Origin: a virus | DNA: 44,914 nt | Strand: one strand, 5' to 3' | Virus genome (UHGV): UHGV-0253772 | Shown: positions 2,920 through 18,482 of the stretch, in pieces | Layout of the letters: the number at the start of each line of letters is the position of its first letter | Position numbering within the stretch: the first letter of the stretch is position 1 | The notes under the pieces: generated by a model | What the model saw: only the letters and a program-made list of their open reading frames with translations | Told to the model about the DNA's origin: nothing | Databases searched by the model: none | Made by a program: the position numbers and the translations under genes

Positions 2920-3398
2920 TTTTTAATACCCTTCTTAGTAGAAATTTTATAAGCAAGGTTGTCTCTTAAGTCACCTGTCTCAACAAGAGGTGCATTAAAG
3001 CCTTTTTTCTTGACTGTGGAAGGTGCGTTAGGAGGGAGGATAGCAGAATTACCAAAACCTCTTTTAATTGCCTTTTGAGCATTCTTTGCAAATGCTTCTA
3101 AGGTATTTGAAGGGTCTGTGTTGAGACTGCTAAGTTGCTTATATAGATTCTTCTTAGTCTGCTCTAACAAGGTCTGTTTGTTTAGCATCATAGTGATTTC
3201 AAACAACCTACGATATACTTTACCAGAAGCTGAGGGAACCCCAATAACTTCTTGTAAATACATTAAAGCAGGATAAGAAAAACCAGAGCTATGTTGACCT
3301 TGTTCTTGAAAATACCCAACTTGAGCATTAGCCGTTTGCAAGTTCTTCATAGCCCCGACTAATTTTGCTCTAGCGGGGTGAATAACCCTTTTAACCAT
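2916..3398 (-). CDS. hypothetical virion protein (head completion module)
   Basis: 160 aa ORF, ATG start, start overlaps stop of upstream gene. Confidence 0.5.
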   Translation of the reverse strand: MVKRVIHPARAKLVGAMKNLQTANAQVGYFQEQGQHSSGFSYPALMYLQEVIGVPSASGKVYRRLFEITMMLNKQTLLEQTKKNLYKQLSSLNTDPSNTLEAFAKNAQKAIKRGFGNSAILPPNAPSTVKKKGFNAPLVETGDLRDNLAYKISTKKGIKK

Positions 3399-3847
3399 TA
3401 TTCATCTCGCTCGATAATAAATACGCCATTAACACGGTTGCAGTAATCTCTGCCTTCGTATCTGGCAGCATCACCATATTCTGTGTATTTCTTGACAGAG
3501 CAAGGATTCTGACGACGCATATCAATGTCGCACTGATTAATACCACCTGCATAGGGTAGTCCTGAAACAGAGCTTTTAACAAGGTCGTCATAAACAGCTT
3601 TCAGAGATTTGAATCTGGAAGAGTTACGTAAATAAACACCACCAACCTTCTCATCTCCCATCTTGGCTACTTGAAAGAGTAAATATTTAAGAGCTTTGAT
3701 GGCTGCTTTCTTTTCATCCTTTCCAGATTCTAGATAGAACCACTCTAGCACAGACTGCTCAATAAGAATTTCATCATTATTAGTGTCTGTGCAGAGGATT
3801 CTTACTCTATCAAGAGGGTTATTGGCTGGGTCGCCTGTATAACACAT
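3398..3847 (-). CDS. hypothetical virion protein (head-tail adaptor candidate)
   Basis: 149 aa ORF directly downstream of major capsid gene. Confidence 0.5.
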   Translation of the reverse strand: MCYTGDPANNPLDRVRILCTDTNNDEILIEQSVLEWFYLESGKDEKKAAIKALKYLLFQVAKMGDEKVGGVYLRNSSRFKSLKAVYDDLVKSSVSGLPYAGGINQCDIDMRRQNPCSVKKYTEYGDAARYEGRDYCNRVNGVFIIERDE

Positions 3848-11287: not shown

Positions 11288-12022
11288 TTATTTCTGTAAT
11301 GCGTTCTTCATTTCTGGTGTTGCAATAGTGTCAATCACACCAGTTTTACAAGCATCGTCAAACCAGTCTGGTAAGATACCTGCTAAGAACCCATTGATAT
11401 TCGTTTTAAGGTACTCTGCAATAAGGGCAGCTTCTTCTTCAATCATCTGCACAACTTCATCTGCATAAGCTGTAATCTTCGAAATACCTTCATTAATCTT
11501 ACTAACAGCTTGGTTAGCTAAATCAGAAATAGTATCAAGACCTTTGTCAATAGCATCTTGTAAGTCACTTAATACATCATTAACACCGTCTAGTGCACTG
11601 TTAATCATATCAATAGCTTTTTGACCATACTCTGTAGCAACACCCATAATACCACTAAATGGTGTACAACCGACTTGTTCACCTGCTGCACCCATAACAT
11701 TAGAATAACCTTTTGCTACCTGCATACGTGATGAAAACTCATCAATGGACTTTTGACCGTAATCCGTCAGCGTTTTGGTAGTTGATGTAGTACTTGTCAG
11801 ACTCGTTGTAAAGCTGTTAAGCAGAACTGTTGTAAGTCCAGCAGCAACAAGTTTATCCTTTATTGTAGGGTCTGTTACAGAGCTAATAGAGCTTACAAGT
11901 GATGTAGAGGCAGCTACGGTTCCACCGAGAACTGCTGCACCAGTAATAAGGGGATTAGAAAACCCTCTACCGGTTTTTAAGAGATTAAAAATCTCCTTAC
12001 CTTGTTCTGTCATCTCTTTCAT
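11288..12022 (-). CDS. hypothetical protein with N-terminal hydrophobic segment and helical C-terminal region
   Basis: ORF-track start at 12085 would overlap a tRNA; internal ATG at 12022 taken as start (244 aa). Confidence 0.5.
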   Translation of the reverse strand: MKEMTEQGKEIFNLLKTGRGFSNPLITGAAVLGGTVAASTSLVSSISSVTDPTIKDKLVAAGLTTVLLNSFTTSLTSTTSTTKTLTDYGQKSIDEFSSRMQVAKGYSNVMGAAGEQVGCTPFSGIMGVATEYGQKAIDMINSALDGVNDVLSDLQDAIDKGLDTISDLANQAVSKINEGISKITAYADEVVQMIEEEAALIAEYLKTNINGFLAGILPDWFDDACKTGVIDTIATPEMKNALQK

Positions 12023-12038
12023 TAAGCACCTTTGAAAT

Positions 12039-12115
12039 TGGTAGTCCAGTGGGATTTGAACCCTCTTCTCATGTTTTTCAGACACGCGCTTTAACCATAT
12101 AAGCTACTTGGACTA
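12039..12115 (-). tRNA. tRNA-Phe (anticodon GAA)
   Basis: T-loop GGTTCAAATCC, anticodon loop ctGAAaa; D-arm and acceptor pairing imperfect in manual fold. Confidence 0.5.
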
Positions 12116-12308: not shown

Positions 12309-12388
12309 TGGTACTCCATATCGGATTCGAACCGATACATAACACAGATTTTAAGTCTGGCCTCTCTGCCAATTGGAGTAATGGAGCA
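12309..12388 (-). tRNA. tRNA-Leu (anticodon UAA), atypical short variable arm
   Basis: D-loop CAATTGGCAGA of type-II style, anticodon loop ctTAAaa, discriminator A, but only about 7 nt variable region; boundaries uncertain. Confidence 0.45.
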
Positions 12389-12473: not shown

Positions 12474-13031
12474 TTACTTTCTTAGTGGATGAATAAAGAA
12501 TGCCAACATAACTCTTTCCCTTGAGAATGCTCTTTCTTCTGGGACAACACTTTTTAGCTTCCACCCAATATAAATTCTCCAGTAAAACTGTTTACCAAAG
12601 ACTTTAATTGATGGGATAAAAGCGAATAATCCCCAAGCATTGCTGTTCCACATTAGGAGATAACCTGTCTGATTATCTTCAGGGTTAGAACTTACGTTGA
12701 TATTACCTTTCCACTTAGTAACATCTTTTACATCTCTTCCTAACACATGGTAAGAGAAGTTATAAGCTTTGTTTCTCCAGAGCCAACCAACTCTCTGCAT
12801 ATAGACACCAAGCTTACCAATCTTTCTAATCTTAGCCCATCGTTCGATATGACCTTCATCACCATCAATTGGGTTGTCATAAGTTTCCATCCATCTGAAC
12901 CCGAAAGGTAAGTGTCCTTTCTTCTCACTGTAGAATGGAACTACAAAAGGTGCTAAGATAACTGCTAAGATTGCTGCAAATGGCTCTAATAAAGCTAAGA
13001 AAATCCATGAAGCATACTTCAAATATCTCAT
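12474..13031 (-). CDS. hypothetical membrane protein
   Basis: 185 aa, N-terminal hydrophobic helices, W/Y-rich; ATG start. Confidence 0.5.
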   Translation of the reverse strand: MRYLKYASWIFLALLEPFAAILAVILAPFVVPFYSEKKGHLPFGFRWMETYDNPIDGDEGHIERWAKIRKIGKLGVYMQRVGWLWRNKAYNFSYHVLGRDVKDVTKWKGNINVSSNPEDNQTGYLLMWNSNAWGLFAFIPSIKVFGKQFYWRIYIGWKLKSVVPEERAFSRERVMLAFFIHPLRK

Positions 13032-13479: not shown

Positions 13480-13557
13480 TGGTGTTCCAAGACGGATTCG
13501 AACCGTCACTAGTACAAGGTTTGAGCTTGCATCCTCTGCCAATTGGGATACTGGAAC
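13480..13557 (-). tRNA. tRNA-Leu (anticodon CAA), atypical short variable arm
   Basis: D-loop CAATTGGCAGA, anticodon stem gcaag/cttgt, loop ctCAAac, discriminator A, about 6 nt variable region. Confidence 0.5.
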
Positions 13558-14057: not shown

Positions 14058-14134
14058 TGGTACACCTAGAGAGATTCGAACTCACACTGAGCAGATTCTA
14101 AGTCTGCTGCCTCTACCAATTGGGCTATAGGTGC
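14058..14134 (-). tRNA. tRNA-Leu (anticodon UAG), atypical short variable arm
   Basis: D-loop CAATTGGTAGA, anticodon stem gcaga/tctgc perfect, loop ctTAGaa, discriminator A, 5 nt variable region. Confidence 0.55.
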
Positions 14135-14377
14135 ATTAAATCTTTTTAGAGAACTTCTAAGAACCTAAGCAACAAGGTTCCACAACAAGCTGTAATAACC
14201 TTAGAAGCCCTCTAAAAAGACCTAATTTGGTCTTTGCATAGTCTTGTTTAATCCGGTGACTAGAACCTTTGGAGAGCTTGATATTATCTCTTCTCCGTGA
14301 CACCTACTAGGTGCTTTACTGTGCGTGTACGACAATACACGAGGGATAAACCGAAAATGCGAGCAAGCATGGACGGA

Positions 14378-14719
14378 TTAAATCTTTAAGCTAAGTTCAG
14401 TCTTAGACTTGACATCTTTAGCTTTGTAGATGACAACTTTATCAAGTGGTTCAATGTAAACAGCTAAGTAATCAACTTGAGAGTTATCAAAATTCATTAT
14501 TCTATTTTCATTCTTGTTAGAACGAACTCTTTTCAGTTGCACTCTCCAAAGTTCACCTCTTTTGACTGATGTTGATTTTACCTCAACAGTCTCAATCAAG
14601 CCATCTTTGTGGACTAGAAAGTCATACTTTGCATTATCTGTAGCTGGTGAATACACTTCATAACCTCTTTTGAGGAAAGCTAATTGTGTAGCAATTTCAC
14701 CTACTGAACCTTTCTTCAT
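14378..14719 (-). CDS. Hjc-like PD-(D/E)xK nuclease (Holliday-junction-resolvase-like fold)
   Basis: motif order GSxGE ... YDFLV ... IETVEVKS matches the E-D-ExK signature of Hjc-type nucleases; ATG at 14719 with AAGGTGA upstream; the ORF-track start at 14728 is a GTG. Confidence 0.45.
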   Translation of the reverse strand: MKKGSVGEIATQLAFLKRGYEVYSPATDNAKYDFLVHKDGLIETVEVKSTSVKRGELWRVQLKRVRSNKNENRIMNFDNSQVDYLAVYIEPLDKVVIYKAKDVKSKTELSLKI

Positions 14720-14740
14720 AATCATCACCTTAAATTATTT

Positions 14741-14827
14741 TGGCAGAGAGTGCAGGAGTTGAACCCGTACCGTTTCCAGCAGCACCAGTTTTCAAGGCTG
14801 GTTGGTCTCCGTTGACCGCCACTCTCT
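14741..14827 (-). tRNA. tRNA-Ser (anticodon UGA), long variable arm
   Basis: 87 nt, perfect 7 bp acceptor agagagt/actctct, loop ctTGAaa, extra arm present. Confidence 0.6.
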
Positions 14828-14831
14828 CCGA

Positions 14832-14902
14832 AACAATCTTTGGCAGGGGTGTAGAGATTCGAACTCTAATCAAGAATTTTGGAGACTCTATTGCTGCCAT
14901 AG
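14832..14902 (-). tRNA. tRNA-Trp (anticodon CCA)
   Basis: acceptor aggggtg/cacccct, T-arm tagag-TTCGAAT-ctcta, loop ctCCAaa. Confidence 0.6.
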
Positions 14903-15050
14903 CTCACCCCTATTAAAACTACAATTCGAAGCTTACCGTATTATCTCAACACTGTAAAGCCCCTTCTCAGATTATTTACATGTTCTGGAAAACATGAGAT
15001 ACAGACCACCTCCCTACAGGAAGACCCGCTTAGGTCGTCTAAGTAATCTG

Positions 15051-15127
15051 CTAACTAATTGGCACACCCTACAGGATTCGAACCTGTAACTAACGATTTA
15101 GAAGACCGTTGCTCTATCCAATTGAAC
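15051..15127 (-). tRNA. tRNA-Arg (anticodon UCU)
   Basis: T-arm acagg-TTCGAAT-cctgt perfect, anticodon loop ctTCTaa. Confidence 0.6.
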
Positions 15128-15473
15128 TAAGGGTGCATTAATCTTTAAAGACTCTCTTAGAAAGCCCTTAAAGATGCCCACCTTATTAATCATACCGTGG
15201 GCTAGTACGCCAAATTCTTTGATGAGGGATTGGAATACCTCACTGGTGTTTAGCCTATCAAGCTACTGCCAGAAAAACATTGTCGTTTGCATTTATTTTA
15301 AATTTGCAAAATAGACGCTACGCAACGAAAACTATTCAGAATATGTACAACAAATTTCCCCACATTGTGTTACGTCTAACGCTCATGTATTGGTGTTTGA
15401 ATTATACATATTATGAATTATTTTTAGTTACTATAAAGTAGTCACATCTTAATGTCAACAACTTTATTGAAAT

Positions 15474-15781: not shown

Positions 15782-16239
15782 ATTAAATTATCTTTGTAGA
15801 TAAGCTACCCAGACTTGCTTAAGGTCTGTAGCGATGTGCCTTTTTGGGTTTAAATCTAGAATTTACCCTTTCACCCTTTGTGGTCGCATACTCACAGGTA
15901 AGCTTAATAACTTATCTACAAAGATAATTACCAGACCGTTGTTTATCATCTTAAGTGCTACCATTACACCAACTCGACATCTGCCGAGTGAAGGAATCGA
16001 ACCTTCGCCTTTTCTTTACCGGAGAAATAGATTGTTTAAGTTTTGCTGTAAACGGTCTTCTGTAAATTTGTTGAGCCAGACCAAGTTTTAAATTTTTTCA
16101 AAATTAAATTGGCTTGAAAATATCATACGTACTTGCTGAATTTGGTCTTCTGCTCCTTTAAAGAATACTCGTAAGAACTCTTTAAGGGAGGGGCTAAATA
16201 GCCCTCTCAAAACATCATTTTGAAATACTTATTATAATT

Positions 16240-16316: not shown

Positions 16317-16321
16317 TCTAT

Positions 16322-17066: not shown

Positions 17067-18482
17067 TTACCAGATGTAACGGTCAAGCATTACTGCTTTG
17101 AGCATTACGCTGATTGGGTCAAACTTCTCACCACCAAGCAGAGCTTTTAAAGTGGCTGGAGAGAACCCTGATACCATTGCTACACCATTATCCTTAACAG
17201 ATACTTCGCAAGTACCATTACGGTTTGCTAAGTACCAGAATACTAGTTGTGGCATTTCGTATCCAGCTTTTTTGTACTTACTCTGAATTGCTTCAAAGTT
17301 TGTACGACCATTTGCACCATCAACCTGATTAAACTCCATATCAGAGAAGATAATAAGCTTACTTGGCATATCTTTCTGAGTCAAGTTGTTTCTCTTACCT
17401 GTTTCAAGAATGCGGTCAAAAGCTGCTTGTAAGTTAGTTGAGCCATATTCAACGTGTCGCATCACCTGACGATGACGGTTTCGTAAATCACCACTCAGTT
17501 CGATGAAGTGAGGGTTTGTTGAATAAACCATTAACTCATTCTTAAAGCAACCTGTATTGCGTTCTGCTACATACAAGGCAAGTGATACACCAATATCCAG
17601 AGCAGTAATGGAGCCAAAATTCACCCAAGACATTGAACTTGATACATCAGACATACACAAGATGTTTTCACCTTCTGCCATCCAGTTTGGTAGTGCTTTC
17701 CACTGCTCATTAGCAACATCTGCATTACCATACTTGACAGATTTAATCACATCGTATGGGTAAACAGCACCAGCGTTAATCTTAGTCTCACCTTTTGATA
17801 AGGACTCGATGTAAGCTTTGTAACGCTCTCCATCTTTACGGTTAAACAGTTTTTGGTAACGTGCAGCAGCAAGTGAAGGAATCTTACTGTAGTCAATCTT
17901 ACCAAACTCATTAGCAGAGATTTTTTGCTCAACTGTATCAGATAGTGCAGACAACAGTGTGCGGTACTCTTTCTCACTCAAGTTGGCAAACTTGCAGAAA
18001 CGTTTTACAAACTGCTTATGACGTGGTTTGACTCGTGGCAACCACTTAGCCGCCAAACCTGCTGTTGCAGGGTCTAGTAATGCTGCTTCTAAATGTTTGA
18101 AGGCATCTGTCTCGAAACGAGTACCTACGAAGATTTTGAAGTCATCAAAACGACCAAGTTCTGCAATCTTATCCATAATGCGAAGAACCTGCGTAGACTC
18201 TAAAACTTTGTCTTCAATTGCTTGAAGCAAAACAGTTCTGAAGGCTTTACGCTCACCCATACCTTCTCGTACATCTCGCATATGAAGCAAAATACGAACT
18301 GCAACATCAACATCCTCACGCAAAGCTTTGTAGAACAGGTCTGGTAAGATTTCTACGTTGCTACGGCTTGAACCAGCAGCTTTGTAAAAGTCTACAAGAG
18401 CAGACATTGATGAAGTATGGTTTACAGCACCATTTTCAGTTCGACCTGCATGAAGGTGCGCATGTTTAAATAATTCGCTCAT
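17067..18482 (-). CDS. vWA-domain protein with N-terminal helical TROVE/DUF2828-like domain (Ro60-like architecture)
   Basis: 471 aa; MIDAS-type DxSxS motif (SDVSSSMS) at the start of a C-terminal vWA-like region; N-terminal 270 aa helical; family assignment from memory of domain architecture, not from a search. Confidence 0.4.
   Translation of the reverse strand: MSELFKHAHLHAGRTENGAVNHTSSMSALVDFYKAAGSSRSNVEILPDLFYKALREDVDVAVRILLHMRDVREGMGERKAFRTVLLQAIEDKVLESTQVLRIMDKIAELGRFDDFKIFVGTRFETDAFKHLEAALLDPATAGLAAKWLPRVKPRHKQFVKRFCKFANLSEKEYRTLLSALSDTVEQKISANEFGKIDYSKIPSLAAARYQKLFNRKDGERYKAYIESLSKGETKINAGAVYPYDVIKSVKYGNADVANEQWKALPNWMAEGENILCMSDVSSSMSWVNFGSITALDIGVSLALYVAERNTGCFKNELMVYSTNPHFIELSGDLRNRHRQVMRHVEYGSTNLQAAFDRILETGKRNNLTQKDMPSKLIIFSDMEFNQVDGANGRTNFEAIQSKYKKAGYEMPQLVFWYLANRNGTCEVSVKDNGVAMVSGFSPATLKALLGGEKFDPISVMLKAVMLDRYIW

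Follow-up and report, generated by a model that had tools for sequence, protein, structure and literature searches.

A small nuclease gene of the I-Ssp6803I family and its linked tRNA-Ser allele in the tRNA cluster of a FelixO1-like phage, a probable free-standing homing endonuclease

Investigation of the tRNA cluster in the viral genome UHGV-0253772, a DNA stretch of 44,914 nucleotides (hereafter the window), revealed a gene for a nuclease of 113 aa which is probably a free-standing homing endonuclease with its target in or beside the tRNA-Ser(UGA) gene of related phages lacking the gene, a reading that draws on sequence comparison, a structural model and analogy with characterised enzymes. 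Together with its own tRNA-Ser(UGA) allele, the gene most likely forms a rare mobile cassette in the tRNA cluster of FelixO1-like phages, as suggested by alignments of carriers and non-carriers. The window itself, judged by its sequence, comes from a FelixO1-like phage of the genus Felixounavirus.

The nuclease gene and its protein family

An intact ORF of 113 codons is present at positions 14378..14719 on the minus strand of the window. The ORF lister reported it as 14378..14728 (-), with a GTG start and 116 aa, while the ATG at 14719 gives a product of 113 aa (MKKGSVGEIATQ...YDFLVHKDGLIETVEVKS...LKI*) and is preceded by the Shine-Dalgarno sequence AAGGTG (14726-14731), 6 nt ahead of it, for which reason 14378-14719 is regarded as the best gene model. 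The size, position and three motifs given for this protein in a preliminary description of the window were all recovered, with GSVGE at residues 4-8, YDFLV at residues 32-36 and IETVEVKS at residues 42-49. The reading frame is a genuine gene; a chance ORF is excluded by the Pfam and PHROG matches described below, by the 3756 cluster representatives retrieved with the family profile at E<=0.001 and by the low dN/dS.

Regarding family membership, residues 2-109 of the protein matched PF11645 (PDDEXK_5) in Pfam with E=3e-17 and 63.3 bits, against a cut-off of 26.1, and in the PHROGs the protein matched the unannotated family PHROG 5018 (E=9e-22). Neither the Hjc family (PF01870) nor the tRNA-intron endonuclease family (PF01974) was matched in Pfam at E<=1, and the Holliday-junction-resolvase family PHROG 843 reached E=0.11 only, with no significant stretch. 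The single solved structure detected by sequence was 2OST, that of I-Ssp6803I, which was found in the PDB with E=4e-6 using the single sequence and with E=1e-10 using a 13-sequence profile, and no Hjc chain was retrieved by the profile search of the PDB at E<=10. Similarly, when the AlphaFold2 model of the 113-aa protein (pLDDT 89.3) was compared with known structures using Foldseek, the top four matches were chains of 2OST (TM 0.70-0.79, best E=2e-8), with a sequence identity to I-Ssp6803I of 23-26% in the Foldseek alignment; the following match had E=3e-3, and Hjc structures formed a second tier (TM 0.5-0.57, E about 4e-3 or worse).

By sequence and predicted fold, the nuclease therefore belongs to the I-Ssp6803I family (PF11645) and not to Hjc, membership of the latter being rejected given the missing PF01870 match, the weak PHROG 843 score and the absence of Hjc chains from the PDB profile search. 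The preliminary description had called the protein Hjc-like, which holds in so far as Hjc is a structural cousin but not with regard to family. Hjc is among the closest folds of the published I-Ssp6803I structure (PMC3384342), and this near structural relationship accounts for the resemblance that had been noticed. A Foldseek comparison had been proposed in the same description, and it returned the PD-(D/E)xK fold, with I-Ssp6803I ahead of Hjc. The 'HEase' (homing endonuclease) model of PADLOC also matched the protein (E=1.6e-8) and was the only PADLOC model to do so, while an NCBIfam scan of the nuclease returned nothing meaningful; a component of a defence system was rejected on these two results.

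The putative catalytic residues E8, D33, E46 and K48 are all present. Among 160 family representatives, D33 is kept in all 160 and K48 in 159 (100 and 99%, respectively), E8 is kept in 85%, and position 46 is occupied by E, S or Q, with Q being found in I-Ssp6803I, the catalytic residue numbers and target of which were taken here from alignment and reviews only. With the E8...D33...E46-x-K48 set intact in the protein and its residues conserved in homologues, the PD-(D/E)xK nuclease proposed from the motifs is borne out. Purifying selection on the ORF is strong: the ORF is intact in all nine copies, dN/dS among the nine phage alleles was 0.03-0.13 in pairs separated by 12 or more synonymous differences (dS up to 0.4), and it was about 0.08 in comparison with a paralogue in phage LNA6.

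The cassette, its tRNA-Ser allele and the surrounding tRNA cluster

The presence/absence comparison among related phages that had been suggested in the preliminary description showed the gene to be rare, as it was detected in 8 of about 254 Ounavirinae records (~3%), leaving about 244-246 relatives without it. A query of 606 bp (14135-14740) was matched end to end in these 8 of 254 related records, and gene-less phages matched 14135-14386 only. In tblastn searches, the protein was 94-100% identical in Barry, Tribble, CHB7, EC106, LF110P1, SPJ41, SWJM-02 and NJ12, which span the two genera Felixounavirus and Suspvirus, CHB7 being classed as Suspvirus. No carrier was found among the best 60 matches to 8 kb of neighbouring backbone, and the tRNA region of the window is nearest to those of the gene-less phages pEP20 (97.0%) and JN01 (96.9%), above any carrier. 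The carrier backbones are polyphyletic in these sequence comparisons, i.e., they are not one another's nearest relatives. The flanks of the gene also reassort among carriers, with two alleles of tRNA(UAG), at least two of tRNA-Arg(UCU), two of the upstream tRNA-Trp and three versions of a hairpin. The upstream tRNA-Trp allele of the window is present elsewhere in 23 phages only, all of them without the nuclease gene and with matches beginning at 14841, and this allele, which is otherwise confined to gene-less phages, marks the window as a recombinant.

The window has 27 tRNA genes predicted by ARAGORN, all on the minus strand, between 11114 and 16901. In the direction of transcription, the nuclease gene is preceded by tRNA-Trp(CCA) (14841..14911), by tRNA-Ser(UGA) (14741..14827), which is 87 nt long with an encoded CCA and ends 21 nt ahead of the ATG, and by a leader of 21 nt (14720..14740) which extends from the CCA end of tRNA-Ser to the ATG, includes the AAGGTG and is kept in all aligned carriers. 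The gene is followed by a structured noncoding spacer (14135..14377) and a tRNA with the anticodon UAG (14058-14134), all of these features being on the minus strand. The tRNA flanks and the noncoding stretch of about 240 bp noted earlier are therefore exact, the latter having 243 nt.

Alignments of carriers with gene-less phages delimit a heterologous cassette of ~451 bp (14387..14837, minus strand) consisting of a 10-nt spacer, the tRNA-Ser allele, the leader and the nuclease gene, which takes the place of ~105 bp (spacer and common tRNA-Ser allele) in phages lacking the gene; in these alignments the arrival of the gene is a replacement and not a simple insertion. On its upstream side, the cassette starts immediately behind AAG, 3 nt beyond the CCA end of the preceding tRNA-Trp, and the downstream edge lies inside AAGATTTA, which represents both the final codons of the ORF and the sequence after tRNA-Ser in the empty site. 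The boundaries are identical in the window and six carriers, those that could be aligned. A search of 50,697 phage records for the 87-nt tRNA-Ser(UGA) allele at an identity of at least 98% returned precisely the 8 carriers. Compared with the common tRNA-Ser(UGA) allele of the empty site (90 nt, present in about 244 records), the identity is 69%, with differences in every arm. The anticodon arm of the common allele (AACTGT-CTTGAAA-ACAGTT) is a near-perfect palindrome in which TTGAA is symmetric about the middle anticodon base, and in the linked allele five stem positions of this arm are changed while the loop is kept. Rarity, cassette structure and allele linkage favour the second possibility raised in the preliminary description, that of a mobile nuclease that shapes the tRNA cluster.

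A second gene of this kind, the paralogue in LNA6 (L002 2501-2842), is 71% identical to the nuclease, is located 15 nt after tRNA-Arg(UCU) and replaces a spacer of ~42 nt. The tRNA-Arg allele upstream of this paralogue is also found in gene-less phages, and no linked 'immune' allele is visible there. At the same site, CHB7 has an extra tRNA-like sequence of ~120 nt.

Regarding the spacer downstream of the gene, positions 14135-14377 show 92-99% identity across about 254 phages, carriers as well as non-carriers, and alignments show it to be ancestral backbone outside the mobile cassette; a role of this noncoding stretch as part of the element was rejected because phages that lack the gene have conserved it too. 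The spacer folds much better than shuffled sequence (z-score -3.65) and might represent a processing site or a small RNA. An Rfam scan at E<=1 gave no family for the spacer and no group I intron, but only tRNAs and weak sub-threshold matches. A group I intron with an internal ORF was rejected as well, since the tRNA-Ser is complete, the spacer is also present in gene-less phages and no intron was detected by Rfam. A hairpin of ~30 bp is present in the spacer directly 5' of the next tRNA, and the first hairpin of the spacer, right after the nuclease stop codon, has three versions which differ in sequence and form an equivalent hairpin.

With respect to transcription, a sigma-70-like promoter (TTGACA-17-TATAGT, with 11/12 matches to the consensus, by which alone it was recognised) is located at 15430..15458 on the minus strand, inside a 337-nt spacer upstream of tRNA-Arg(UCU), tRNA-Trp, tRNA-Ser and the nuclease gene, and is a candidate source of the nuclease transcript. 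A promoter scan detected no promoter-like site between tRNA-Ser and the nuclease gene, and for this reason the gene is probably expressed from the tRNA-operon transcript.

The tRNA cluster as a whole has a mosaic make-up, in which genes sharing an anticodon occur as strongly divergent alleles (14058-14134, 14841-14911 and 15060-15136 in the window, and L001-L003 and L011-L019 among the relatives). The two tRNA(UAG) alleles show at most a partial match, with 81% identity over 42% of their length, and tRNA-Arg(UCU) has at least three alleles, in which changes of the anticodon stem are fully compensatory, the allele of NJ12 being unrelated. The window has a true tRNA-Trp of 71 nt, while most relatives have a Trp-like sequence of ~84 nt that is not called by ARAGORN. 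Bacterial tRNA-Leu has a long variable arm, which is missing from all three genes of the window that ARAGORN calls tRNA-Leu (UAA, CAA and UAG at 12309-12387, 13480-13557 and 14058-14134, respectively), as these have just 77-79 nt. At 15989-16039 on the minus strand, in the 458-nt spacer between tRNA-Lys(UUU) and tRNA-Asp, a low-scoring match to part of a tRNA (22 bits, E=0.5) may be a tRNA remnant. Protein genes bordering or inside the cluster, all on the minus strand, include those encoding a DUF2828/DUF7788 protein of 471 aa (17067-18482), which is named 'RNA-binding protein' in one record, a DUF7338 protein of 185 aa (12474-13031) and a DUF7217 protein of 265 aa (11288-12085). In some relatives, tRNA-Asp and tRNA-Tyr are separated by a gene for an HNH homing endonuclease (L013 4505-4933, L017 4543-4971 and L019 4498-4926), which makes this cluster a hotspot for endonucleases of more than one family; in the window, the gap between these two tRNA genes is only 5 nt (16317-16321).

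tRNA adjacency in the wider family, proposed mechanism and alternatives

Homologues with 24-55% identity to the protein, representing about 25 lineages, were collected from annotated phages, IMG/VR contigs, sequencing-run assemblies and metagenomes and scanned for tRNA genes; the viral and metagenome scans with the 13-sequence alignment contributed 6 and 13 loci, respectively, and a word-index protein search gave only 14 matches. A tRNA gene was found within 140 nt of the ORF in about 20 of the about 25 lineages, often at 0-25 nt or overlapping. In about 11 lineages, tRNA-Ser(UGA) is located within 80 nt of the gene, on either side of it; this tRNA gene precedes the ORF in the window type, L037 and L044/L045 and follows it in L020/L035, L021, L024, L025, L029, L038, L039 and L043, and three more lineages (Jada, the Bartholomune group and L028) have tRNA-Ser(GCU) within 60 nt. 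The neighbours in other lineages are mostly tRNA-Leu(UAG) or tRNA-Arg. Exceptions are two contigs which end near the gene, the lineages L023 and L041/L042, where the nearest tRNA is 230-275 nt away, and Pseudomonas phage phiIBB-PAA2, in which the nuclease gene comes after a split gene for DNA polymerase.

The tRNA-Ser(UGA) genes adjoining these nucleases are only 44-69% identical to one another, and the corresponding nucleases are spread over several deep branches, so that the association is with a kind of tRNA gene and not with one travelling copy; a single shared tRNA-Ser that travels with the nuclease was rejected on the low identity of the neighbours. As to variation in arrangement, one metagenomic contig, L027, has two PF11645 genes in tandem (3001-3315 and 3422-3787) and no tRNA genes, and its sister contigs L026 and L028 have tRNA-Ser, two tRNA-Leu and tRNA-Gly after the first PF11645 gene.

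In the mechanism proposed here, the nuclease gene would share the transcript of the tRNA operon, with translation starting from a Shine-Dalgarno sequence of its own, and the product, a small metal-dependent DNA endonuclease, would cut the genome of a gene-less co-infecting relative in or next to the tRNA-Ser(UGA) gene. The likeliest place of the cut would be the near-palindromic anticodon arm, by analogy with I-Ssp6803I. Repair of the broken genome on the carrier template would then copy the ~451-bp cassette into it, comprising a cleavage-resistant tRNA-Ser allele and the nuclease gene. A target inside the tRNA-Ser gene of cassette-less phages is suggested by the position of tRNA-Ser on either side of the nuclease gene in different lineages. 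DNA cleavage, target position, immunity of the linked allele and biased inheritance are what we infer from sequence and by analogy with known enzymes.

Some observations limit how far this mechanism can be specified. All aligned carriers share their boundaries and no variable co-conversion tracts were seen among them, which leaves no tract ends from which a cleavage site might be mapped. Identical boundaries point to one ancestral insertion, and spread by ordinary homologous recombination would look alike. The frequency of ~3% despite dS up to 0.4 is not obviously the pattern of an efficient invader. The oligomeric state and target length may also differ from those of I-Ssp6803I, given the C-terminal residues that are missing from the phage protein.

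Among the alternatives, the one which survives best is a DNA nuclease that does not copy itself and is retained because it profits the phage in some other way, such as by cutting competing phages, by stimulating recombination or amplification of tRNA or anti-defence genes, or by degrading host DNA. The strong purifying selection and long persistence at low frequency would fit such an enzyme, and SegB drives amplification of tRNA and anti-defence segments (PMC13096335). This explanation overlaps with homing and does not exclude it, however, and the window has no tandem amplifications, while insertion polymorphism and linkage to a replacement tRNA allele are what homing predicts; as a full account of the gene it is considered unlikely.

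The role in recombination or debranching which the preliminary description had considered, that of an Hjc-type Holliday-junction resolvase or debranching enzyme serving phage recombination or packaging, was not supported by the comparison and is regarded as very unlikely. The superfamily fold and the E...D...ExK layout are shared with Hjc, Hjc structures were the second-tier fold matches (TM 0.5-0.57) and some GenBank records name homologues 'Holliday junction resolvase', but no Hjc profile was matched in Pfam, the resolvase PHROG stayed at E=0.11, and a resolvase of replication or packaging would not be expected to be missing from ~97% of close relatives, nor to be carried in a cassette with precise boundaries. 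The steady adjacency to tRNA genes in unrelated phages would also be left unexplained.

Less probable again is an enzyme acting on RNA, i.e., one of tRNA processing, tRNA repair or the anticodon-nuclease type that acts on the neighbouring tRNAs. The tight adjacency to tRNA genes, tRNA-Ser above all, would suit it, the PD-(D/E)xK fold is common to tRNA-splicing endonucleases (PMC3424549), and InterPro places homologues in a 'tRNA endonuclease-like' superfamily. However, the tRNA-intron endonuclease family was not matched, the conserved acidic metal-binding residues are those typical of DNA phosphodiesterases, and the closest characterised relative cuts DNA. About 246 relatives furthermore keep the same kind of tRNA cluster without the gene. 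The least probable explanation is a decaying or domesticated remnant without nuclease activity, for example a protein that only binds DNA, as homing endonuclease genes often degenerate once fixed and the protein is shorter than I-Ssp6803I, but all nine copies are intact, with the catalytic residues present and dN/dS of 0.03-0.13.

Returning to the homing endonuclease reading, a broader form of it can be put forward tentatively, although it is doubtful in its entirety: the phage branch of PF11645 might represent widespread, tRNA-gene-specific, free-standing homing endonucleases that read the anticodon arm of tRNA-Ser(UGA) as DNA and, by way of a resistant replacement tRNA, drive allele exchange across tRNA clusters. 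If such a class exists, the exchange could swap in tRNA variants that escape host tRNA-cleaving defences.

Relation to known systems

Membership of PF11645 is not new in itself, since automated annotation labels some copies 'PD(D/E)XK endonuclease'. Papers that mention PF11645 treat it as a cyanobacterial intron enzyme or a generic nuclease domain, and in the searchable literature no account was found of phage members that stand alone beside tRNA genes or that favour tRNA-Ser. I-Ssp6803I is the one characterised enzyme on which the PD-(D/E)xK homing endonuclease family is based, and the present data indicate a large free-standing phage branch of this family which is associated with tRNA genes, most of all with tRNA-Ser. 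If confirmed, homing by this branch would help to explain why otherwise near-identical phages have very different tRNA alleles with the same anticodon, would offer a source of endonucleases of only about 113 aa, which may have long target sites derived from tRNA, and would allow 'Holliday junction resolvase' database labels on such genes to be corrected.

[quoted passage not shown] The phage protein shares with I-Ssp6803I the Pfam family, the fold and the D...(E/Q)xK layout, and both are mobile, sporadic and associated with tRNA genes. In contrast to the intron-encoded enzyme, the phage gene stands alone, with its ORF starting 21 nt behind a complete tRNA and with no group I ribozyme, and it is encoded by a phage beside tRNA-Ser(UGA), whereas I-Ssp6803I is cyanobacterial and located by tRNA-fMet. 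I-Ssp6803I has Q at the catalytic position where the phage protein has the canonical E46, and its chain has 151 residues, while the phage protein of 113 aa lacks about 35-40 C-terminal residues.

Archaeal Hjc (PF01870; PDB 1GEF, 2WCW) resembles the phage protein in its PD-(D/E)xK core, small size and E/D/E-x-K arrangement. However, it is structure-specific and a core gene in its hosts, whereas the phage gene is rare, linked to tRNA genes and part of a cassette, with no profile relationship to Hjc detected.

The closest parallel to the proposed behaviour is SegB of phage T4, a free-standing homing endonuclease which is encoded within a tRNA cluster and drives the inheritance of that cluster (PMC2330249), and homologues of SegB are widely associated with tRNA genes (PMC13096335). 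As proposed for the phage nuclease, SegB is free-standing between tRNA genes, is absent from close relatives, recognises tRNA-gene sequence and drives the inheritance of itself and the surrounding tRNA genes. If the proposal is confirmed, the nuclease described here would be the second example, after SegB and mechanistically independent of it, of homing endonucleases that shape phage tRNA clusters. The fold of SegB is GIY-YIG and unrelated to the PD-(D/E)xK fold of the phage nuclease, and SegB recognises a T-arm motif common to all tRNAs, without isotype preference (PMC13096335), whereas the phage PF11645 family prefers tRNA-Ser.
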